A stretch of DNA of 47,712 nt from Clostridia bacterium (lineage in GTDB: Bacteria; Bacillota; Clostridia; UBA1212; DUPL01): the NCBI GenBank assembly GCA_050951325.1, contig JBMNIW010000010.1, forward strand, positions 1-47,712, written 5' to 3'. Below are positions 10,786-21,930 of the stretch, piece after piece. Made by a program: the position numbers and the translations under genes. Every line of letters starts with the position of its first letter. Position 1 is the stretch's first letter. The notes beneath the pieces are model-generated. The model had not been told where the DNA came from. It did not search any database and saw only the letters and a list, made by a program, of their open reading frames with translations.

Positions 10786-13260
10786 TTAAAATTCACTTAT
10801 TCCACTTTTGTCAATCCCATAAGTTGCAAACTCACGAGCTTTTACAATCACGCAAGATTCCACATCCATAGCAGGTAGCTTAATCTTTACTATCTGGTCA
10901 ACACCCGATGGATTAAACAGTCTGAGAATATATTTCTTTCCGTCATCTGCCAGTCTGAAACACGAAACTTCAACCACAGGATTTGAATCAATTAAAAGCG
11001 CAGGTTTTATGGCTGCAGTGCCTGATGCTGGCGGAAAGTATGACAAGGCCATAGGTTCTTCATTGAATACCTGAGCCTTTCTTCCAACATTATTTTCAAT
11101 GTACTCCTTGCTGCCTGCATCAATGCGCAAAACAAAGGTTCTTTCACCCTGGTCTATATAGTCGGAATGACGCTCCTGAGGCATGGTCTCCCTTCCTGGA
11201 AGAGGATGGGCAGTGTAGCTAGCAGACCTTACCAAGGATATTTTTAGTACCCCATCCTGAACACTGGAACCATATATCCCCTTGTTGATAACTGCAAGTG
11301 CCTTGTCTTCTTTTGCATCCTCAAGCATCAAAAACTTCTGGGAGACATTTTCCCTTCCTGTGCAAGGCAGTTTTTCAAGACCGAAAGCAACCTGTCCTAT
11401 GCAGTCAAACTCTTCAAAATTGCCAGGCACGTTAAGTTTAAGCATCTTCTGCTTCTCATTCCAGAATACATCAACCTTTATATCAATACTTGTACTGTGT
11501 TTTGGCAAATAATATTTAACAACAGCTTTTGAATCATTGTAGCCAAATACAGCTTCAACAACAGTTCGCACATCACCATCTTCAATGATTCTAACAGCTG
11601 GTATTTCTTCCTTAAGCATGCTGAATCTTGCAGCCTCGCTGTCTGAAAGCAGCAAGAAATTGCCCAAGGAATCTGTAAAGCTGGAAACAGTCATGCCCCA
11701 AGGATCGTAATTGTCATCCATGACTTCCAGTGAAAAAGCTCCTTTTTTAAGATAATCCACACCATCAACCCGGTAGCTGTCGACAAGTCCGGTTTTGCGG
11801 TTTATGGTTACATGCAATCTGTCTGTTGAGAAAATGTAATGAGTTGTGGAAGTCAGAATTGTGGGAACTGGCTTTTCGCTTACACGCTTGAATCTGCAGT
11901 CAAACCTGGTAACCTGCATGGGTTTCAACTCTGCATGGAATACAACCTTCTTCCTCCAGTCAATAGGGATTGTACTGTATTCCTTTTCCTGCTGTGTCGG
12001 AAGCTTCTTGTCGCCTTCATACACTGTAGGCAAATCAAAGGTATGGGTCCAATTCTGATCCCACATCATGAACTCACACTCAAAATCTCCTTCAACAGGA
12101 AAAGGGTGAGGGTTGTATACAAGAATAGGTATTGCATCCTCTTTGGCAGCTTCCTGGTCCTTGCATAGATTGAAAAACGCTCTGGCCTTCAATTTTGATA
12201 CAATCTCAAGACCATGATATATCTTCTGCAAACAAGTTTCCTCAACAGGCTTCGTACAGGTTCCAGGCAGATAGTCGTGGAACTGGGCAAGCAAGAGTTC
12301 CTCCATTGCTTTTTCAAGTTCTTCATGAGGATATTCCATAAGACCATTTGCATGGGCATGCGCACACATGCGTTCAGTCATGAAGTACATATTTTCAAGT
12401 TCCCTGTACTTTTGCTTTACCAGCACCTGGCTGGTATAACAGCCTACCGAGTGGTAGTTTAAATCCTTTTCATGGACATAAAGCTGTTTACCACTCTTCC
12501 TTACATCTTCAAAATACTTTTCTGGAGTGGAGTGCAGTACAGTGACACCCTTTTCCTTCTGCTCTTTAATAAATTCAGCAATCCTCTCTATATCTATTCT
12601 TGAAGGACCGCCACCATGGTTGCCAACACCCCACATGGCAAGTACTACTTCATCATCCTTATATTTTTCCATCTCATTGACAATGCTGCCAACTGCATTG
12701 CCCAAGGCACTGCCGTAAAAAGATGGCCTGTGGCATATGACGGAGGAGCCGTCATAACCAACCCATATGTACGTATCAGACTCAAGCGGGCAGGTTTCTT
12801 GCGCAGGTCTTGTATGTAGATAGCTGTCATATCCAAATTTGGTTAATATCTGAACAAGTCCTCTCGTATGTCCAAAGGAGTCCAGATTGACAGCCGTGGT
12901 TGGCTTGACTCCAAATTTTTCTTCAAAGTATTTTCTGCCTGCTTCAATCTGTCTTATAAAAGCCTCTCCGGATGGCATGTTGCAGTCTGGCTGGACATAC
13001 CAGCCGCCCATAATGTGCCACCTGCCCTCTTTTACAAGCCTTTGTATTCTTTCAAACAATTCAGGCTCGTATTCCTCCACCCATTTATACAGGAGAGCTT
13101 CATTGTGGTTGAAAATATATCCGTCAAATTTCTCACTCAGTTCTGCGGCAACTCGAAAAGTGGACAGGGCACAACCAGCGCCTTCTTCCCAATCCCATTG
13201 CCACATAGGGTCAATATGTGCATTTGATATTAAATGTACAACTTTTTTCACTACTCCCAC
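10786..13260 (-). CDS. GH38 alpha-mannosidase, cytoplasmic
   Basis: NAHIDPMWQW, GGWYVQPDCNMPSGE, DSFGH, GVGNHGGGP and QFHD motifs; no signal peptide. The start may be the GTG at 13251. Confidence 0.92.
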   Translation of the reverse strand: MGVVKKVVHLISNAHIDPMWQWDWEEGAGCALSTFRVAAELSEKFDGYIFNHNEALLYKWVEEYEPELFERIQRLVKEGRWHIMGGWYVQPDCNMPSGEAFIRQIEAGRKYFEEKFGVKPTTAVNLDSFGHTRGLVQILTKFGYDSYLHTRPAQETCPLESDTYIWVGYDGSSVICHRPSFYGSALGNAVGSIVNEMEKYKDDEVVLAMWGVGNHGGGPSRIDIERIAEFIKEQKEKGVTVLHSTPEKYFEDVRKSGKQLYVHEKDLNYHSVGCYTSQVLVKQKYRELENMYFMTERMCAHAHANGLMEYPHEELEKAMEELLLAQFHDYLPGTCTKPVEETCLQKIYHGLEIVSKLKARAFFNLCKDQEAAKEDAIPILVYNPHPFPVEGDFECEFMMWDQNWTHTFDLPTVYEGDKKLPTQQEKEYSTIPIDWRKKVVFHAELKPMQVTRFDCRFKRVSEKPVPTILTSTTHYIFSTDRLHVTINRKTGLVDSYRVDGVDYLKKGAFSLEVMDDNYDPWGMTVSSFTDSLGNFLLLSDSEAARFSMLKEEIPAVRIIEDGDVRTVVEAVFGYNDSKAVVKYYLPKHSTSIDIKVDVFWNEKQKMLKLNVPGNFEEFDCIGQVAFGLEKLPCTGRENVSQKFLMLEDAKEDKALAVINKGIYGSSVQDGVLKISLVRSASYTAHPLPGRETMPQERHSDYIDQGERTFVLRIDAGSKEYIENNVGRKAQVFNEEPMALSYFPPASGTAAIKPALLIDSNPVVEVSCFRLADDGKKYILRLFNPSGVDQIVKIKLPAMDVESCVIVKAREFATYGIDKSGISEF

Positions 13261-13458
13261 CTCTTGTTGTTAATATTGAAAATATAGCATAGGATTATAT
13301 GTTAGTCCATAGTATACAGATAAAATTAATATCAAACAAAGCTGCAATCTCAAATTTCTCATCAAATTCAAATCAAGGAACCTATTATTCATTTACTTTT
13401 TCCAACCTAAACTACTTGTTTTTTTTACATATTTTCCATATAATATGACGAAAAATAC

Positions 13459-13493
13459 CATTTGGAACATTTAGAGGACATTTTGGAACATGG
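13459..13493 (+). promoter_or_regulatory. Direct-repeat regulator site candidate
   Basis: TTTGGAACAT at 13461 and 13482 (21-bp period), with a partial GGACATTT copy between them, in the divergent intergenic region. Confidence 0.45.
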
Positions 13494-13589
13494 ACGGTTT
13501 TTTCTCAGTGTTTTATGCTATACTTATAACAAGTGTATACACGGTATAAAGCAACTTTAAAGTTGTAAAAAAAGTATAGGAGGTTTAAC

Positions 13590-14163
13590 ATGAAAAAAAG
13601 TAAAGTTTTTTTGTGTAATGATCCTTTTAGTTTTGTTACTAGGTGGCATATCTGTAAATGCTGCCTCAGCGCTCCTTGACTTACAGTTGTTGTACAGTAG
13701 AGTTTATAATTATCCTCCACAACATCGTTATCTGGAGGGGTACGCAACTTTTAACTTAACACAAAGCGATATGCGTAAGGATAAGAATACATACGAACAA
13801 ACAAAAAGAGTAGCACATAAGCTTTTTGCTCACGATGAGGCATATTACAATATGATAAAAATAGAAGATAGAGCAAGCCTCAAACTGAACTATCAAGCTT
13901 ATGTTTTAGCCCCATACCACCCAGTTAACAATCCAAATGGAGGGAACTATGGTGGAGATCCTTGTTACGTATTGGTTCAGGCTGGGGATTTCTATCAAGG
14001 TCTCAATTCGATGTCATCCGTAGCCTATGTGGACACAATTATGATGGCACCCATTGGTGATACTTGGGTAAAAGAAGAAATACTTGCATGGGTATATGGT
14101 GGTGTGCAAGCGTTTGTTGATACCAAGTATATAACTGACTCACAGCCATCATATAAGTATTAA
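13590..14163 (+). CDS. Secreted Tyr-rich protein of unknown function, with a frameshift in the signal peptide
   Basis: AGGAGG RBS then ATG at 13590. Removing one base from A7 (13593-13599) or T7 (13606-13612) joins it to ORF 13618..14163 and gives a Sec signal, MKKSKVFCVMILLVLLLGGISVNA. Confidence 0.7.
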
Positions 14164-14198
14164 CACAATCCCGACCATTTTGGTCGAGATTGTGTTAA
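14160..14198 (+). other. Strong hairpin between the secreted-protein gene and the permeases
   Basis: TTAACACAATCCCGACC...GGTCGAGATTGTGTTAA is a near-perfect 17-bp stem with no long T tract. Confidence 0.65.
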
Positions 14199-14231
14199 TG
14201 AAGCTTATTTCTTTTGAGAGGAAGAAGAGAA

Positions 14232-15539
14232 ATGTTTAAATATATCTCAAAAATTACCATTAACAAAAAAAGTATACTGAAGCATATATTACATATATTA
14301 ATCAATATAATTATTGTTTATGTGATAATCTCAAATTTACTAAGTATATATGCTGGCCATATTAGAACTATTTGGCCTGTAAAATATGCTGATTACGATG
14401 CTGTATTGAGCGGTACCACATATAACGATTTAATATTAGAGATAGACACAAATAATATTGACGAGTTTGTTGGATTTTCAATGCCGATGTGGTATGCAAG
14501 ATTTATAAAAGGAAATAAAAGTTATTCTAAACCAGAAGAGGAAGGAATACCTTCCATTTTAGGTGCATCATCAAATAAAAATTCTTTGATTACAGCATAT
14601 GAGATGTTACTTAAGGGTTGTATTATAGATAAAGATGAGTCTTTATTCTCCTTGGAAAACGGAATTTTTATATCTGATAAAATTGCAGTTGAGATTGGAG
14701 CAAAAGTTGGAGATAAAATAAAACTCCAGCTTCCGATTAATCCGGGAAAAGTATCAGATCAAGAGAAAATCAATGGGTTTGATAATGATTTAATCTATGA
14801 TTTTGTTGTAGCAGCAATATATAGAGCCCCTTTTGTTTCCCTTTCGTTTATTGATATTGAAATGTATCATAAAATCGGAAAGGACTATCTTATAGGTGGT
14901 GGAGATGATAAATACTTCATGTATATGAATCATGTCTACATAAAATTTATCAATACGGACGCAGGCTTAAAAGAACTTGAAAGTTTTCGTTCAACACCTA
15001 TTTCTATGTATTTAGAACATGGAGATAATTGGAGAGATAAAATTAAGGAAAATGAATTTTTATATAAAATATATTTAGAATCAGCAGGTAAGGGATTTGA
15101 GAAACATAGTACCCTCTTAAAATATGCAGAAAAATACAGTACCATTGATACAAGAGTAGTTGTTTTTTATGCGTTGGCTGCATCAATTGCAATCAGTCTG
15201 CTTTTTATCAGCAAAAACACTAAGGCTATAAATACTGGCATGAAAAGTTTTGGTGTACTGTCAGCTTCCGGAATGCCAAGCAAAACATTTTTTATCTACT
15301 TTGTATTAACTACTTTTATAGAACAGACTGTCTTGTTAGTATTAGTCCATCTTGGAAAAACATTATTTTTTATCTATAGAAATGACACATGGTTTTATTA
15401 CATGACTAATTCATTTGTACGGATACGTATTTATTTTCCCATAATAATTGGAATAGTACTATCATCTTTATTCACTGGTATTTATGCAAAAAGCATTATA
15501 AGCAAACGTAAAATATTGTCAGCATTATCATCGGAATAA
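14232..15539 (+). CDS. FtsX/MacB-like ABC permease A
   Basis: N-terminal TM, large extracellular loop with IFISDKIA..GAKVGDKI and VVAAIY, then FGVLSASGM and three C-terminal TMs. Confidence 0.7.
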   Translation: MFKYISKITINKKSILKHILHILINIIIVYVIISNLLSIYAGHIRTIWPVKYADYDAVLSGTTYNDLILEIDTNNIDEFVGFSMPMWYARFIKGNKSYSKPEEEGIPSILGASSNKNSLITAYEMLLKGCIIDKDESLFSLENGIFISDKIAVEIGAKVGDKIKLQLPINPGKVSDQEKINGFDNDLIYDFVVAAIYRAPFVSLSFIDIEMYHKIGKDYLIGGGDDKYFMYMNHVYIKFINTDAGLKELESFRSTPISMYLEHGDNWRDKIKENEFLYKIYLESAGKGFEKHSTLLKYAEKYSTIDTRVVVFYALAASIAISLLFISKNTKAINTGMKSFGVLSASGMPSKTFFIYFVLTTFIEQTVLLVLVHLGKTLFFIYRNDTWFYYMTNSFVRIRIYFPIIIGIVLSSLFTGIYAKSIISKRKILSALSSE

Positions 15540-15544
15540 GGAGT

Positions 15545-16714
15545 ATGATTATGTTAATTATAAGATATGTCTTAGCTCTATGGAAAAGAAAAACACTTGG
15601 TCAGTTAATATCATTATTATATATAACCCCAACATTCATCATAATTATATGCACAGTACTACAGATGTTGATGCCTGTTGCATCCAGCATTATTTTTGAA
15701 ACCAATAGCAATTATACATACATGTATAGTGGGGATTTTTTTACTGTTACTGATAACGGTATTGATATAAGTAATGATGCCGTCTATTTTTTGAATTCAG
15801 ACGATGCTGCCACATATTTATATAAACCATTTGTAATATCTTCCAAGTATGACAATACATTTATAGTCGATGGGCATCCATTTTCCGAAATTAACAAACT
15901 GGATAATCTATATATTGCCATGAAGGAAAAGGAGTTGTCATTTGGATTATTCACACGCAAAAATTTGATAACTAGGTATAATACGTCGAATAACGTTCTT
16001 TCAACCTATCCAGAAATATATATTTCCTATAATTCAGCCAGAATTCTTGAAGTCGCTCCGGGAGATAAGATTATAGTTAAAGTTAATAAAGGTTACATTG
16101 AATGCCAAGTCAGTGGAATTCTAAGACCAAATTACGAAGACCTGTCTTACTCACGCAACTGGCTCGACTATACCGAGGTAACGTCATTTCCAGCACTCCT
16201 TATTGTTGACGAGAATACATTTTATGACATAGCTAATGGCCATCATGACATTTCAGTACGTGTTTTTACAAATAAAGAATTTATACCTAACAGTTTTGAT
16301 ATGTATTTAAAAGCAAGCAAAATTAACTCTTATAAAGAGCTTTTAATGTCGAGCAGTCTTATAACACGATTGGCTTCACAAGTGCTTATGATTGCTGCTG
16401 TATTAATAATTGTAATACAACTAGAGTATGGATTTACACAAAAAAAGAATGCAAAAGATATTGAGGTATTAGCAAAGCTCGGAATGAACAAAAAGCAAAT
16501 ATCATTAACATTGACCACACATGTATGTATTGTTTGCTTTATCTGTTTAATTCTGGCATCATTGATATGTCGCTTTATATATTTTGATATTTTAATTGAC
16601 ATGTATTGTGAAACTTTAGTATTCTTAATAACATATCTACTACTTGCAGTGATATGTATATTAATTTTGGTAATCCGATATATTTTTGCAAAGAAATATT
16701 ATTCATCATTTTGA
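15545..16714 (+). CDS. FtsX/MacB-like ABC permease B
   Basis: Same topology as A. IYISYNSARILEVAPGDKI, VSGIL and IEVLAKLGM motifs. Confidence 0.7.
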   Translation: MIMLIIRYVLALWKRKTLGQLISLLYITPTFIIIICTVLQMLMPVASSIIFETNSNYTYMYSGDFFTVTDNGIDISNDAVYFLNSDDAATYLYKPFVISSKYDNTFIVDGHPFSEINKLDNLYIAMKEKELSFGLFTRKNLITRYNTSNNVLSTYPEIYISYNSARILEVAPGDKIIVKVNKGYIECQVSGILRPNYEDLSYSRNWLDYTEVTSFPALLIVDENTFYDIANGHHDISVRVFTNKEFIPNSFDMYLKASKINSYKELLMSSSLITRLASQVLMIAAVLIIVIQLEYGFTQKKNAKDIEVLAKLGMNKKQISLTLTTHVCIVCFICLILASLICRFIYFDILIDMYCETLVFLITYLLLAVICILILVIRYIFAKKYYSSF

Positions 16715-16728
16715 AGAGGAGGTTGCAT

Positions 16729-17400
16729 ATGAGTTTCATTGAGTTCAAAGAAGTTGATCTAACATTTCAGACAAAAGTACAGAGAATACCAATATTCAAG
16801 GGATTGAATCTGGAGATTGAAAAAGGAGAATTCATCACCATTGCTGGACCATCCGGCAAAGGAAAATCAACACTTTTAAACCTTGTTTCAGGTTTCGTCA
16901 AACCTACAGGCGGAGAAATCTGGGTTGACGGCAAAAACCTAAGCAAAATGAATGACACACAGGTATGTGATTACAGAAACAAACGTATAGGTTACATATT
17001 CCAAACCTTTAATCTCATTCAGCAGTTTAATGTAAGGGACAATGTGGCAGTTCCTCTGCTTCTATCAGGTATGAAGAAGAAGCAGGCTTATGAAAAAGTG
17101 GAAGAACTTTTAGACAAGGTCGGCATGACAAACAGAATTCTTGAATATCCAAGAACCTTGTCGGGTGGCGAGCAGCAGAGGGTTGCCTTTGCAAGAGCCA
17201 TTGCAAACAATCCTGACATAATCCTTGCTGACGAACCCACTGGAAACCTGGACACAAAGAACGGTGAGCTTATTGTTAATCTTCTCATGGAAGCAAATAA
17301 GGAAAATGGTACAACTGTACTTTGTGTGTCCCATGATGAGAGAATTATTGAAAAAGGACAAAGAACGATACTAATTGAAGAAATAACCTGCGTAGAGTAG
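16729..17400 (+). CDS. ABC transporter ATP-binding protein (LolD/MacB-type)
   Basis: GPSGKGKST, LSGGEQQRVAFARA, ILADEPTGNLD and SHD motifs. Start at the ATG at 16729 after AGGAGG. Confidence 0.95.
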   Translation: MSFIEFKEVDLTFQTKVQRIPIFKGLNLEIEKGEFITIAGPSGKGKSTLLNLVSGFVKPTGGEIWVDGKNLSKMNDTQVCDYRNKRIGYIFQTFNLIQQFNVRDNVAVPLLLSGMKKKQAYEKVEELLDKVGMTNRILEYPRTLSGGEQQRVAFARAIANNPDIILADEPTGNLDTKNGELIVNLLMEANKENGTTVLCVSHDERIIEKGQRTILIEEITCVE

Positions 17401-17424
17401 GTAGAAATACAAGGAGACAATTTT

Positions 17425-18651
17425 ATGACAAGAATGATATTATTGGGCAGAGTTTTCTTCTCAAGGAAATCAGCCTTGCTTTCCATGCTCAACAATCTGT
17501 TGAAACTGATAATTTTTTTCTTCATAATCTTATTCTCTATAATACCGATTGTAAGATATCAATATACAATAGATAAGCTGCTATACAGCAACTATGATGC
17601 ATTGGTACAAGGATGCTCCGAACATATGTACAGCAGATTTGATAAAGATGCTAATGTAACTGGACTTGTTGCAATAACCACTACTATGAGTAGTACACTT
17701 GTTCATGGAAGCAACAGGACAACAACTAGATTGGCTGCTGTCTATGACGATAATCTTGATGCATTAACAGAGTATGTGCTTACTGATGAGCTGTTTGTAA
17801 AAAAAGATGACAGTCTAATGAATAAAAGCAATGCGTTACTCCTTAGTTATTGGACAAGCAAAAACATAAAGGCTGACATAGGAGATGTTGTTAGAATAGA
17901 GGACCTGGACCTTGAATATGTTTTGGCCGGCATTTATTCGGATTCCTATTCAAATGCTTCCGCTATTGTTTTGGGTTCATCACACGAGGGTAAGGCAGCC
18001 AAGTTTTTTGACAATCTTCTGAAAGGAAGATTATACGGCACTGTCTACTTAAAGTTCGAAGACATAAAAGCCGGGCTGGATGACATAGACGATAATTATT
18101 ATAGGGATTTTCCTCTTTACAGAAAATACGGCGAAAACTATCTGGTAGAAGCTGCTGACGATGAACTTCTACAGGCAAAGAGCAGCGCACAAATTAGAAC
18201 AGAACAACTTAGGAGAACAGAGCTTTCTTTCAAGTATTCAGATAGCCCCTTCGACAAGAGCTATGCATACTATATCATCCCCATAGGAATGATGATGGTA
18301 TGCCTGCTGACAGTCCAGGAAAACAACAAGCGAATACAGCTGGGGTTGAAGCCCGTTGCCATACTGAGCATTAGCGGTATATCCAAAATGCATATATTTT
18401 TATACTTCCTGTTTGACTCATTTATTAAAACGAGTATTCTACAGCTGTTGACCATTTACATAACCTTGTTAATATTCAGAGCACAAGAGATATACACACC
18501 TTCTGATTTGATGCTTGGCTATACACTTCTGTATATTTTTAGCATATTAATTGCGTCAGTAATATCTGCCCATATCAGCATAAAGAAGCTCGGAGAGGAA
18601 CATATAATGGCGGCATTAAACGATGAAGACATACAGGAGGATTTGCTATGA
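17425..18651 (+). CDS. FtsX/MacB-like ABC permease A' (paralog of A)
   Basis: YSNYDALVQG, KADIGDVV, VLAGIY, VYLKF..KAGL and AILSISGIS align with permease A. Confidence 0.7.
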   Translation: MTRMILLGRVFFSRKSALLSMLNNLLKLIIFFFIILFSIIPIVRYQYTIDKLLYSNYDALVQGCSEHMYSRFDKDANVTGLVAITTTMSSTLVHGSNRTTTRLAAVYDDNLDALTEYVLTDELFVKKDDSLMNKSNALLLSYWTSKNIKADIGDVVRIEDLDLEYVLAGIYSDSYSNASAIVLGSSHEGKAAKFFDNLLKGRLYGTVYLKFEDIKAGLDDIDDNYYRDFPLYRKYGENYLVEAADDELLQAKSSAQIRTEQLRRTELSFKYSDSPFDKSYAYYIIPIGMMMVCLLTVQENNKRIQLGLKPVAILSISGISKMHIFLYFLFDSFIKTSILQLLTIYITLLIFRAQEIYTPSDLMLGYTLLYIFSILIASVISAHISIKKLGEEHIMAALNDEDIQEDLL

Positions 18652-19781
18652 CTTTCTTTTATACGAAATATATATGGGCGGTTTGGAAAAGGGCGAAAAA
18701 TGTAAACATACTGACGGTGGTATACATGATACCGTTTCTGACTTTTATTATGTCACTATTGTCGACCAACATATTTCCCGTTATCGCCCAATATGCTTTT
18801 ATTAACAACAGCAATTACAATTATATGTACAAACTTGACTATATGACAGACCAAAAGATACTTGAGGATCTGAATCAGGAATCTTTGTTCATAGGAAACC
18901 ATAACTCGATATATGTGTATAAGGAAGATATTATAACCGCCGGTATGCAGAGCTTAATACACCTTGGTACACCCGACAGCAGCTTGACCCATACCAAGTT
19001 TACAATAGATAACTTCTTATCCTTTAATGGAGAATTAAAGGATAACAGTATCTATTTGTCCTATGATTGTACCAAAGCATTAAATTTGCATTTGGGAGAT
19101 ACCTGTACCATTGAATTTAATAAATATGATCATACTACAAAAACATCATATAAAAGAAAAGTCGAGTTTAAAGTCGCTGGAATATTGAAACCAAACTATG
19201 AGGATTCCCAACCCTCCAGATCACCAAACAATAACTTAAGCCTTGCAATTCTGGATGAAGAATCACTAAATTGGTTAAAGGATAAATCATGTCATTTCGA
19301 CGACAGGTACTATTACATTTACTATGCAAATGAATTTGTTGATTTGTCCAAGTATCAAGAGGACAATATTAATTTTTCATACAGTACAAAGGAGGATCTG
19401 TTAAGAAAAACCAAAGAATACTATCTGTCTCCTAGTGTACTTGTATCAAAAGGGGCAACAATAATTGTTTCATTCGCTACCCTGTTTGCAATACTGTTGT
19501 TTGAACTGAGATACTTGAGAAAAAAGCACTCAAGAAACATTCGAATAATATGCATGCTTGGCCTGTCCAGAAAAGGAGTAAAAGAGTTGTACATGGGTCT
19601 TGCACTTGCAAACTTTCTGATTGCCAGCATAATATCATTTGTTTTGCTTAAATTCATAATACTTGACCTGATTATAAAGCTATATTACACCTTTTTGCAA
19701 CTTTCGTTGCTATTCCTTGCAATCCTTGTCTTTTCAGTATTGTTTTCATATCTGCAGTCAAGGAAAATAAGAGTTGTTTAA
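18648..19781 (+). CDS. FtsX/MacB-like ABC permease B' (paralog of B)
   Basis: VWKR, NSNYNYMY, IYLSY, VAGILKPNYED and MLGLS align with permease B. Confidence 0.7.
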   Translation: MTFFYTKYIWAVWKRAKNVNILTVVYMIPFLTFIMSLLSTNIFPVIAQYAFINNSNYNYMYKLDYMTDQKILEDLNQESLFIGNHNSIYVYKEDIITAGMQSLIHLGTPDSSLTHTKFTIDNFLSFNGELKDNSIYLSYDCTKALNLHLGDTCTIEFNKYDHTTKTSYKRKVEFKVAGILKPNYEDSQPSRSPNNNLSLAILDEESLNWLKDKSCHFDDRYYYIYYANEFVDLSKYQEDNINFSYSTKEDLLRKTKEYYLSPSVLVSKGATIIVSFATLFAILLFELRYLRKKHSRNIRIICMLGLSRKGVKELYMGLALANFLIASIISFVLLKFIILDLIIKLYYTFLQLSLLFLAILVFSVLFSYLQSRKIRVV

Positions 19782-19782
19782 A

Positions 19783-19808
19783 AGCAGCAACCTTATAAGG
19801 TTGCTGCT
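19783..19808. terminator. Bidirectional terminator
   Basis: Perfect AGCAGCAACCT-TATA-AGGTTGCTGCT stem between convergent genes. Confidence 0.8.
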
Positions 19809-19813
19809 CTACA

Positions 19814-21097
19814 TTACTTCTTCTTAATTCTTATAACCACAATTACTGCAATAACAGCTACAACTATCACCCCGGCTATGATTAATGGTTTTGGAATATT
19901 ATCCTTTTCATCTTTTTTATCCGGCTCAGCAGTTGGTGTACTGGTTGTTGATGGAGTTTCCTCAGGATTCTCGGTGGGTTCACTGGTAGGCTCTTCAGTT
20001 GGGCTTAAATCAACAACCTCTTCGAAAGCCTTCTCGATATCATCATTCTTTGTAAGGATTGCATTGCCCCATACAGCAAAGTCACCTATTGTACCATCGC
20101 CTGCATCAGACAGATACAACCTAAGAATCTTTCCACCTTCAATATCTGCAGTTAGAAGGGAGGCCTCTTCCTGACTCCTCTTTACTTCACTCCTTGCAAC
20201 CTCCACACCATCCACGCTGACAATAAACTCAACTGAACCGTTGGACGCGTCATGGAATAGAAGATCGGGCACACCTGCATAGCATGCAAATGTCTTGAAT
20301 CCCAATCCCTCAATATTTATCTCTATGAAGGATTCCCCTTCCTTGGATGAAGCAACATGCATTAACCCTTTTTTATACTCCTTTGAGTTTATAACATACC
20401 CTTTTGCTTCATCCGTACCATCAACAAAAACAATGGTACCATTTGAATACATGTTGCCTAATAAGAGGTCACTTAGGTAAACAGTACTTTTATCAGCCAT
20501 TTCACTCTTCTGCTTTGGAGCCTCTTTTCCTTCCCCCGGTATAAAGACCACATCTCTTAAGAAGGAAGGATAAGATATCCTGTTTGTACCAACAGGCATT
20601 GCTCCCTCATCACCTTGATACACACCACTGTCAGGATGTGTTATGAAAATATCGCTCTCATGATCCTGGTAATATCCTTTTATGTACTGATAGCTAAGAG
20701 AGCCTGTTGTGTTGCGGATTGCAACCGTATAGTCATTGTAGGCTTTTACCTGGAGAGGTTCTTCCAGCTCATACTCTCTCCAACCTGCTTGTCCCTTCTC
20801 CAGATCCCAGAAGTAAGGCCCTGCAACAAGTTCTTCAGCTGCTGTATCCCATATTTCAACAGTATAACTTCCAGATTCCTCGGCACCTACATACATGCGA
20901 ACTTTGGTAATCGTGCCCGGAACCTTTACTGCAAACCTTGTACCCAGAGTAAGCGGAATTGCATCCTCCCCGGTTTCAACTACAAAGCCGCTTAAATCCT
21001 CTTTGTGTATTGTGTAGGTATCTGCACCAAGTACAAGATTTGTACAGGTTATTAGTATGAACAAAGGTACAAGTAATATCAAAAAAGCTTTTTTCAT
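19814..21097 (-). CDS. Surface protein: DUF4082-like and NPCBM/NEW2 domains, P/T/E linker, C-terminal TM anchor
   Basis: Start MKKAFLILL at 21097. LTLGTRF...GTITKVRMY...DVVF is DUF4082-like. VYLSDL...KGL.H...GSVEFIVSVDG...DFAVWGNA is NPCBM-like. Ends in a TM and KKK. Confidence 0.75.
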   Translation of the reverse strand: MKKAFLILLVPLFILITCTNLVLGADTYTIHKEDLSGFVVETGEDAIPLTLGTRFAVKVPGTITKVRMYVGAEESGSYTVEIWDTAAEELVAGPYFWDLEKGQAGWREYELEEPLQVKAYNDYTVAIRNTTGSLSYQYIKGYYQDHESDIFITHPDSGVYQGDEGAMPVGTNRISYPSFLRDVVFIPGEGKEAPKQKSEMADKSTVYLSDLLLGNMYSNGTIVFVDGTDEAKGYVINSKEYKKGLMHVASSKEGESFIEINIEGLGFKTFACYAGVPDLLFHDASNGSVEFIVSVDGVEVARSEVKRSQEEASLLTADIEGGKILRLYLSDAGDGTIGDFAVWGNAILTKNDDIEKAFEEVVDLSPTEEPTSEPTENPEETPSTTSTPTAEPDKKDEKDNIPKPLIIAGVIVVAVIAVIVVIRIKKK

Positions 21098-21101
21098 AGT
21101 C

Positions 21102-21824
21102 CTAGCCTTCAACTTTCCTTCCTCTTGACACAACAACCACAGCAGCAGAAGCAAGAGCGACAAATACACCCAAAAGAATAAAGGACCAAGACCCATCGCC
21201 TGTGCTTGGGTTTGTCTCTGGTTCTGTTGTTGGTTCTGGCTCGTCAACTTCTGGCACAAACACAACATCACGCAAAAACGCAGGATACGTTACTTGATTT
21301 CTTCCTTCAGGGAACAGGTTAAGGTCGCTTGAATATGCACCGTAACTGTTCTCAAGATTGAAAACAGAATCAGATGAATCAATGCTTTCAAAGTACCCCA
21401 GAACCATCTGATAAACAAGAGAAGAACTATTGTTTCTAACCGAAACCATATAATCTTTATCTGCTTCAATTTCTACAGGAGAAGGAAGTTCAAATATCCT
21501 CCAACCCGTTGTGCCTGACTCAATCTCCCAATCAAATGGACCTGCAATATGCTCCTTTGTCTCCACATCCCATAGTTCTACCACATACACACCCGATTCT
21601 GCCTCCCCTGTGTACATGCGCACTGCAGTTATTTTACCTGGGACTCTGACTGCAAAAGTAGTTCCGAGAGTAAGAGGAATACCATCAGAACCTTCTACAA
21701 TATCAAAGCCTTCTAAATCACCAAATATTGTCTCTCCTTCAATCTCTGCAAAAGAAGGAATCATTACCATACACAGAACAAGAATCAATATAATTGCTGT
21801 TAAAAACTTTCTAACCATTTTCAT
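21102..21824 (-). CDS. Surface protein with DUF4082-like domain and NPxTG-type sorting signal
   Basis: Signal peptide, LTLGTTF...GKITAVRMY...DVVF, PT linker, then NPSTGD, a TM and a basic tail. The start could be 21833, 21824 or 21818. Confidence 0.72.
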   Translation of the reverse strand: MKMVRKFLTAIILILVLCMVMIPSFAEIEGETIFGDLEGFDIVEGSDGIPLTLGTTFAVRVPGKITAVRMYTGEAESGVYVVELWDVETKEHIAGPFDWEIESGTTGWRIFELPSPVEIEADKDYMVSVRNNSSSLVYQMVLGYFESIDSSDSVFNLENSYGAYSSDLNLFPEGRNQVTYPAFLRDVVFVPEVDEPEPTTEPETNPSTGDGSWSFILLGVFVALASAAVVVVSRGRKVEG

Positions 21825-21930
21825 TTCCTCCACCTTTCATATCTTGCTATCTCCATTTTATTAGAACCACCAGTTCTTTTTTAGGTGACAATATGTCATA
21901 AAGAAAGAAATCCTGTAATATTTTGCTCTG

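Follow-up and report, generated by a model that had tools for sequence, protein, structure and literature searches.

The window, a 47,712-nt stretch of contig JBMNIW010000010.1 from a Clostridia bacterium (assembly GCA_050951325.1; UBA1212, DUPL01), carries on its plus strand, between 13.4 and 19.8 kb, a cassette of six tightly spaced genes. The order is an exported-protein gene (S), a hairpin, two permease genes (A and B), an ATP-binding cassette (ABC) ATPase gene (D), a second permease pair (A′ and B′) and a terminator. S appears from its sequence to be a member of a previously undescribed family of small exported proteins. The four permeases are type VII proteins with the MacB/FtsX/LolCE fold and have diverged very far. 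We propose, at a probability of roughly 0.4, that S and the ABC genes form one module in which the ABC machine acts on S or on the effect of S. The architecture and the S family appear to be new, while the type VII topology, the fold and the ATPase class are known.

S encodes a protein with a signal peptide and 19 Tyr, and a mature part of about 161 amino acids (aa; 18.6 kDa, isoelectric point (pI) 5.8) with a single Cys. An earlier note, made from the letters of this DNA alone, had read the signal peptide, the Tyr count and the lone mature Cys correctly, and each gene of the cassette lies where it had been placed. The signal peptide ends in VNAASA and there is no Cys at the cleavage site, so the protein has no lipobox. 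S has no match in Pfam, NCBIfam, PHROGs or PADLOC. A search with an S profile through 1,835,955,588 representative proteins gave three matches: S itself, a protein of a nearly identical locus that runs on into A through a frameshift, and a distant relative, P0005. A word-indexed search added P0002, which is 53% identical to S, and a widened search brought the family to 10 clusters in total. Scanning metagenomes with S returned one locus, from the same species, and comparison with plasmids, phages and viral contigs returned no match. The best ESM Atlas score (0.81) is at chance level, as are all rows of a PDB sequence search with the S profile. An AlphaFold2 (AF2) model of S is unusable (predicted local distance difference test, pLDDT, 41); it has only beta strands after the signal-peptide helix, and no fold search was made on it.

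The evidence that ties S to the ABC genes comes from a second locus, in another family of the same order (genome G013). There, a 187-aa exported protein with a signal peptide and 18 Tyr is encoded 20 nt 5′ of A-B-D. Aligned without its signal peptide, it gives z 5.4 against mature S (1/1000 shuffles) and z 4.1 against P0002 (2/1000), and shows nothing against P0005. The G013-type subfamily consists of six clusters (P0006-P0011), and profile-profile comparison with S gives 93% probability (E 3e-7). A six-frame search of the 45 genomes of the order with the G013-type profile found only G013 and the window's S (E 1.3e-7, profile positions 2-100). We consider it quite probable, judging from these alignments, that the two subfamilies are related. 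A-B-D then follows an S-family gene in both of the loci with readable surroundings, which belong to two families and carry two lineages of permease pair. That both S-family genes with known surroundings directly precede the rare A-B-D speaks for S and the ABC module being functionally linked, provided that the subfamilies are indeed related.

The module is rare and patchily distributed. No other genome of the window's family is present in the genome collection. Within the order, a single-protein search found a B homologue in 5 of 45 genomes, the window genome included, and a D orthologue (E ≤ 1e-60) occurs in 7 of 45; with the truncated copy of genome G005, some part of the module is present in 8 of 45. 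In the class and phylum samples seven candidates were scored per genome, so the counts are floors. D was found in at least 5 of 398 scored genomes of the class, and only one of these (G050) lies outside the order; in G050's own order it is the single carrier among 39 genomes. In the phylum sample D was found in at least 1 of 401 genomes, which is the window genome itself, and in none of the 400 others.

The two permease pairs are paralogous. A and A′ are 24% identical (E 3e-16) and B and B′ 25% (E 3e-26), and A shows no significant similarity to B. The earlier note had paired them in the same way, and the motif pairs it quoted are present in the translations. By hydropathy all four have the same topology: a first transmembrane helix (TM1, roughly residues 21-43), followed by an outer domain 230-270 residues long (about 265 in A) and three transmembrane helices in the last ~120 residues. 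The same note described the extracellular loops as highly diverged, which the alignments contradict. Identity is uniform along each pair across the N-terminus with TM1, the outer domain and TM2-4 (22-26% for A/A′, 24-30% for B/B′), and the outer parts differ only in carrying more insertions and deletions.

Curated family models scarcely reach these proteins. With Pfam FtsX (PF02687), B reaches 18.8 bits and B′ 21.2, below the cut-off of 25.5, and A and A′ have no Pfam match, FtsX and MacB_PCD (PF12704) included; thus none of the four permeases attains a gathering score. The lolCE model TIGR02212 matches B′ only, at 11.3 bits against a cut-off of 362.45. A homologue search with B as the query returned B itself only, and PHROGs and PADLOC gave nothing for A or B and generic ATPase matches for D only. 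The fold was assigned by structure prediction. A, which was the permease modelled of the four, gave an AF2 model with a pLDDT of 69 from a five-row alignment, and its secondary structure agrees with the hydropathy topology. Foldseek returned 57 matches to the model at E ≤ 0.001, and those listed are all type VII permeases or outer domains of such permeases. The top matches, with E from 5e-12 to 1e-5, are LolE/LolC (5e-12), MacB, the pneumococcal structure 5xu1, YtrEF, HrtBA and BceAB, and isolated outer domains of LolC/E, YknZ and MacB are also among the matches. Whole-chain TM-scores (template modelling) of about 0.3 place this assignment at the level of the fold. A profile of the B family matches MacB and LolE chains only weakly (E ~0.1).

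D is an ATPase of the MacB/LolD/FtsE subgroup and the only nucleotide-binding subunit in the cassette. It matches Pfam ABC_tran at 5e-37. Its best NCBIfam matches are LolD (TIGR02211, 232.4 bits, cut-off 307.75), FtsE (TIGR02673, 218.1 bits, cut-off 264.85), DarD (203 bits), the ABC protein of lactococcin 972 type (Lcn972; TIGR03608, 202.1 bits, cut-off 254.85), DevA, YbbA and MacB, with E between 4e-69 and 2e-52 and all scores below the cut-offs. Topology, fold matches and these family scores together bear out the earlier proposal of type VII permeases served by a MacB/LolD-type ATPase. From their sequences we presume that A and B are heterodimer partners, and A′/B′ presumably share D with A/B.

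Relatives of the module differ in what surrounds it. Genome G023 has A-B-D, G009 has A-B-D with a broken A, G040 has B-D where one contig begins and another D where a contig ends, and G005 has B and a truncated D, all of them without S. G001 has D at a contig start and G031 has the order A-D-B. G013 carries the S-like gene before A-B-D, and G050, from another order of the class, encodes an 81-aa exported protein followed by a hairpin and A-B-D. A and B lie side by side in the readable loci (twice in the window, on contig C8 of the same genome, and in G023, G009, G013 and G050), with the A-D-B arrangement of G031 as the other order. D is 49-78% identical between loci, and for A and B the figure drops to about 20-33% between lineages. 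The pairs form at least four lineages: the window's A/B with G023, G009 and G040; A′/B′ loosely with the C8 and G005 copies; G013 with G031; and G050. Among the relatives only the B protein of G050 reaches the Pfam FtsX cut-off, at 26.0 bits. A contig search with a four-row B alignment returned three loci only, all of which had also been found otherwise. A′/B′ was also considered as the orthologue of the S-linked pair of G013. This was rejected: A′ scores 97 bits to the A of G013 and 87 to that of G023, and the nearest relatives of B′ are the C8 and G005 copies.

The four-permease layout occurs in the window only, in one of the seven loci with readable sequence beyond the module; the six others have no second pair. 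This restriction to one locus speaks against the reading of the earlier note. The accumulation of extra pairs that it expected is seen in this genome, as a third pair on C8 and an ATPase remnant on contig C12. The C8 pair (204415-206671, locus L002) lies behind an AraC-type regulator with no ATPase nearby; a frameshift breaks its A some 92 residues in, and the B protein (370 aa) is intact. Convergently downstream are a Tyr-rich 189-aa lipoprotein and a sigma/anti-sigma-like gene pair. The C12 remnant (529630-530208) is an orphan copy of D that is 92% identical in protein and 79% in DNA, lacks the first 31 residues and has an internal stop. Its many silent differences suggest that this copy may have been long kept before it broke.

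The feature coordinates are collected in Table 1. The gaps S-A, A-B, B-D, D-A′ and A′-B′ are 68, 5, 14, 24 and -4 nt. The cassette had been described as visibly AT-rich, and its overall GC content is indeed low, but it is uneven: 27% in the upstream spacer, 38% in S, 30% in A, 31% in B, 40% in D, 38% in A′ and 34% in B′, next to 43% in the flanks and 39-40% in the genome. The repeats, the strong hairpin and the terminator that had been noted are all in place, and the terminal palindrome marks the end of the operon.

Table 1. Features of the cassette, with positions in the window
Feature	Position	Strand	Remarks
Direct repeat pair TTTGGAACAT	13461..13491	+	copies start at 13461 and 13482, 21 nt start to start; ~100 nt 5′ of S start
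Gene S	13590..14163	+	ATG 13590 out of frame; open S frame 13594-14163
Hairpin and U-rich tract	14154..14216	+	arms 14159-14177 and 14181-14199; overlaps S stop codon
Permease A	14232..15539	+	435 aa from ATG 14232; 441 aa from alternative TTG 14214
Permease B	15545..16714	+	389 aa
ATPase D	16729..17400	+	223 aa; listed open reading frame begins 16654; GAGGAGG ribosome site
Permease A′	17425..18651	+	408 aa
Permease B′	18648..19781	+	377 aa; start overlaps A′ stop by 4 nt
Palindromic hairpin/terminator	19783..19808	.	self-match on minus strand; common to convergent downstream gene

Exported proteins also precede the module where S is missing. A same-strand exported protein is encoded 5′ of A in five of the six readable loci (S, the S-like protein of G013, G050, G009 and G023); their signal peptides were called by eye from translations, and the loci are few and partly related. 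The protein of G009 is a 259-aa lipoprotein with a lipobox, 28 nt from A, and that of G023 is a GDSL lipoprotein with a lipobox, 210 nt from A. The 81-aa protein of G050 (L049, C1:11083-11328, minus strand) has a TTG start with a strong ribosome site, and a 14-bp hairpin lies over its stop codon before A-B-D. This layout is like S-hairpin-A in the window, without detectable similarity to S. The G050 protein and the G009 lipoprotein were tried as S homologues and rejected (z -0.5 to 1.1, hhalign probability 0.8%).

These neighbours bring in a different possibility, that the ABC machine handles clients in a manner like that of Lol or FtsEX. It would grip an exported protein encoded by the upstream gene and held by its N-terminus or a lipid anchor, and release, position or activate it; the client would vary by locus and A′B′ would serve a second client encoded elsewhere. 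We regard this as somewhat unlikely, although it accounts for the lipoprotein neighbours and the conserved N-terminal stretch of S no less well than self-protection does. Lipoproteins make up two of the five upstream exported proteins, LolCDE likewise combines two unlike permeases with one ATPase, and the best folds of A are LolE and LolC. The stretch of S kept between the subfamilies is the signal peptide with the first ~35 mature residues, which would be nearest the membrane after export, and the pI of S and its nearest relatives is acidic to neutral, unlike that of most bacteriocins. Yet S lacks a lipobox and the upstream proteins have no common detectable feature. If S were the sole client, A, B and D should have decayed after the frameshift in S described below, yet they are intact. 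The scores to the LolCE and LolD equivalog models are far off, and the open-access literature searched, as far as its text was available, has no monoderm system of this kind. A sharper version, in which a Lol-like machine pulls Sec-exported clients (the S family or lipoproteins) off the outer face by their N-terminal segment and alternative pairs plug into one ATPase, is in our view unlikely.

LolCDE extracts lipoproteins, and FtsEX drives exported hydrolases. LolCDE is the nearest known system in build: it too has two unlike permeases of four transmembrane helices with large outer domains and one ATPase gene, it supplies the closest fold of A (LolE, LolC), and LolD is the top model score of D. 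The heterodimeric arrangement is read here from genes alone, as A is unlike B and adjacent to it in the readable loci. LolCDE is a system of diderm bacteria, and the host of the cassette belongs to the class Clostridia and presumably has one membrane only. The window shows no evident LolA or LolB partner, S is no lipoprotein, there are two permease pairs per ATPase, and the equivalog cut-offs for LolC/E and LolD are not reached. FtsEX with its exported partners (PcsB, CwlO, RipC, EnvC) resembles the cassette as a type VII ABC system with an ATPase of this subgroup; it moves nothing across the membrane and drives an exported partner protein, a part that S might play here. FtsX, however, is a homodimer in a conserved housekeeping system, whereas here two unlike permeases form part of a rare and patchy module, and S has no hydrolase domain; its low-confidence model is all beta and not a coiled coil.

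The resemblance to the Lcn972 locus is one of gene order, an exported-protein gene followed by membrane protein and ABC ATPase genes. Mature Lcn972 has ~66 aa, against ~160 aa for S. S does not match the Lcn972 model, A, B, A′ and B′ have no match to the bacteriocin-associated membrane model (NCBIfam, E ≤ 1), and D, at 202 bits against the cut-off of 254.85, scores lower on this type than on LolD and FtsE.

The signals around S bear on how the genes are read. The hairpin over the S stop codon has 19-bp arms and a predicted free energy of -31.1 kcal/mol (z -6.25; none of 200 shuffled sequences folds equally well), with a U-rich tail behind it. The element probably serves as an intrinsic terminator, a leaky one, that separates S from the ABC genes. 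It fills the S-A gap and leaves ~30 nt before the A start. This is too little space for another promoter, so A-B-D-A′-B′ would depend on read-through from S or on a promoter within the S gene. Upstream of S, the TTTGGAACAT repeat is a possible regulator site, to judge from its sequence; across the 3.08-Mb genome, comparable loose pairs were found at four further places only. A LytTR-type reading of the 21-nt-spaced repeat was considered as a possibility: the motif has no recurrent genomic use, and the 28 flanking open reading frames (ORFs) hold no LytTR regulator. The regulators among those ORFs are three of AraC type, several kb off, and no sensor kinase or response regulator of BceRS type was found in the cassette or in the 28 ORFs. 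A search of positions 12800-20300 with Rfam gave two chance-level snoRNA rows only.

Metatranscriptome contigs from three studies of biogas fermenters place S on its own contig, from 13479 to 14171 or 14174. The contigs of all three runs begin at 13479, between the two repeat copies. Those of runs X15 and X16 stop at 14174 and 14171, inside the hairpin, without a loose end, where the DNA contig continues, which hints weakly at termination in the hairpin. Contig depth in RNA is 46-68 over S, ~18-22 over D and 0-8 over A and B, and depth over D also exceeds that over A′ and B′; RNA contigs cannot rank expression, so these differences serve as a hint only. In all three runs the S contig opens with the same 30 letters foreign to the window. 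They are identical to C12:232478-232507, a leader 5′ of a glycosyltransferase-like gene of the same genome, and their length equals the graph overlap (k-1). This looks like a structural variant with a copy of the C12 leader directly before 13479, and a chimera at the RNA level or in assembly is possible. The DNA run and an independent metagenome contig (L023) have the arrangement of the window and not the junction with the C12 leader.

A further alternative is that the ABC genes are a stand-alone envelope defence or detoxification system against an outside compound, similar to BceAB, YknYZ, HrtAB or MacB, and that S and the other upstream genes are mere neighbours. Most characterised Gram-positive MacB-family systems defend against outside compounds, according to one review (PMC5985334). 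The loci of G023, G009, G040 and G005 have no S, the upstream genes are mutually unrelated, and the higher RNA depth at D, with S on its own contig, hints weakly at separate transcription. This explanation has to set against them that the S family is very rare (3 matches in 1.84 billion proteins; 10 clusters when widened), yet both known members directly precede an equally rare module. There is also no promoter room between the hairpin and A, no sensor or regulator of BceRS type in the cassette, and the permeases have 4 transmembrane helices and not the 10 of BceB. We find it somewhat doubtful.

YknXYZ and its MacB-family relatives (BceAB, HrtAB, Spr0693-0695) have in common with the cassette the type VII fold and a separate ATPase. 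Their permeases are homodimeric or 10-helix fusions, that of BceAB modules having 10 helices where four are predicted here, and sequence similarity is near the detection limit. Several MacB-family systems need a MacA/YknX adaptor or a BceRS sensor, none of which is present in this cassette. To our knowledge, the characterised type VII ABC systems of Gram-positive bacteria are homodimers or fused permeases that resist peptides, export haem or drive cell-wall hydrolases. A system of the build described here is not found in the open-access literature searched, within the text available.

The S gene of the window is frameshifted near its start. An AGGAGG site and ATG 13590 are followed by seven A (13593-13599), and the frame of the signal peptide and mature protein is +1 to that ATG. 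The sole in-frame start, ATG 13618, has no ribosome site, and from it the signal peptide would lose its charged N-region. In the S homologues P0002, P0005 and P0006-P0011 the signal peptide is intact, with an MKK or MSK start. The remark in the earlier note that the protein would have to be frame-repaired was to the point: the A7 run offsets the frame by +1, and P0002 has the intact MKK form. The A7 run is also present in L023, and contigs of one DNA run and three RNA runs show no indel; as contigs drop rare variants, this uniformity is one of assembled contigs. A minority of in-frame S, that is phase variation, may be compatible with these data. Read from the ATG with the good ribosome site, 13590-13679 gives a 29-aa out-of-frame peptide with four Cys, which we have no reason to think is made or functional.

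Does the cassette then represent a decaying leftover of horizontally acquired DNA that is now functionless in this species? S is frameshifted in six of the six assemblies examined, the A gene on C8 is broken, the ATPase copy on C12 is truncated with an internal stop, and the GC content of A and B (30-31%) departs from that of the genome (39-40%). On the other side, A, B, D, A′ and B′ are five long open frames totalling ~5.5 kb with tight spacing and ribosome sites, and RNA contigs cover S and D. The bacterium is found in anaerobic digester, bioreactor and sludge metagenomes, where 14 DNA runs hold 96-100% of the sampled words of the cassette, and identity between the cassette and the independent contig L023 is 99.4-99.9%. 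Because 5.5 kb of open frames are kept at >99% identity across samples, we consider pure decay very improbable. No flanking direct repeats or mobile-element genes were found around the cassette. No empty insertion site could be defined against relatives; the GH38 neighbour is kept in four related loci and its flank is not.

We thus return to a single module of S and the ABC genes. The operon would have two linked parts, a Sec-exported S with its own upstream region and leaky terminator, and a divergent type VII ABC system made of two unlike four-helix permeases (A with B) and D, with a second pair A′/B′ using the same ATPase. ATP would move the outer domains, and the target of the machine, on the external side of the membrane, would be S itself or its effect. 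According to PMC5985334, type VII ABC systems work by mechanotransmission on a substrate at the outer face and not by transport across the membrane, and the MacB-type YknXYZ protects its producer from its own SDP toxin. By analogy, we slightly favour self-protection against an antibacterial protein of S type, with the spare pairs as alternative specificities; the window's strain, with S knocked out at the third or fourth codon and five intact ABC genes, might be an immune non-producer. We lean this way because S is a separate, strongly terminated structural gene before the ABC genes, because the distribution is patchy and the permeases diverge fast beside a conserved ATPase, and because the genome holds spare and decaying pairs and a broken S beside an intact ABC set would fit an immune non-producer.

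Several observations weigh against this proposal. The match between S and the G013-type proteins is weak and confined to the first 63 columns, the signal peptide and ~35 mature residues. Lipoproteins, including a GDSL esterase, account for two of the exported proteins encoded before A, and these do not resemble toxins. The neighbour proteins of G009, G023, G050 and C8 have no similarity to S or to each other, and no S was found in G023, G009, G040 or G005 at E ≤ 1, save for a match to the signal peptide only. The objection raised in the earlier note, that permeases might usually occur without the secreted gene, therefore applies in part, namely to the loci of these four genomes. The S subfamilies do not track the A/B lineages, in the two cases available. 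The cognate pairing of S with A+B and the co-variation of alleles that the earlier note had foreseen are not borne out, as the S-like gene of G013 is joined to an A/B pair of a third lineage. The other objection in that note, a lack of co-variation or interaction, likewise applies in part. The uniform frameshift means that the module may be partly defunct here. The pI of the S family spans 4.7 to 9.4 and is not uniformly cationic, no family or solved-structure match gives S an activity, and the outer domains are no more diverged than the transmembrane segments. A predicted complex between mature S and the A and B outer domains scored 0.00; the prediction was run without controls and is evidence neither way.

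The cassette is flanked by minus-strand sugar-utilisation genes, with a GH38 mannosidase on one side and a DUF4082/NPCBM protein on the other. On the minus strand at 19814-21833 are two adjacent DUF4082 proteins, one of which has an NPCBM domain and a C-terminal transmembrane anchor. Their two listed ORFs overlap at 21102-21271, and the start of the first is probably further downstream. They sit within a block of glycoside hydrolases (GH38, GH20 and GH99-like) and AraC regulators that looks like a glycan-degradation locus.

The system is small and self-contained, and intact homologues exist, while the S copy in the window is broken. The module sets itself apart by a LolCDE-like two-permease build that is outside the reach of curated family models and appears to be tied to a new exported family, which has so far been seen only next to this module. 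If S-family proteins are antibacterial, they would represent a protein toxin and a kind of immunity that are both new, with spare immunity pairs sharing one motor. If they are clients, the module would be a protein-release machine not described for single-membrane bacteria.

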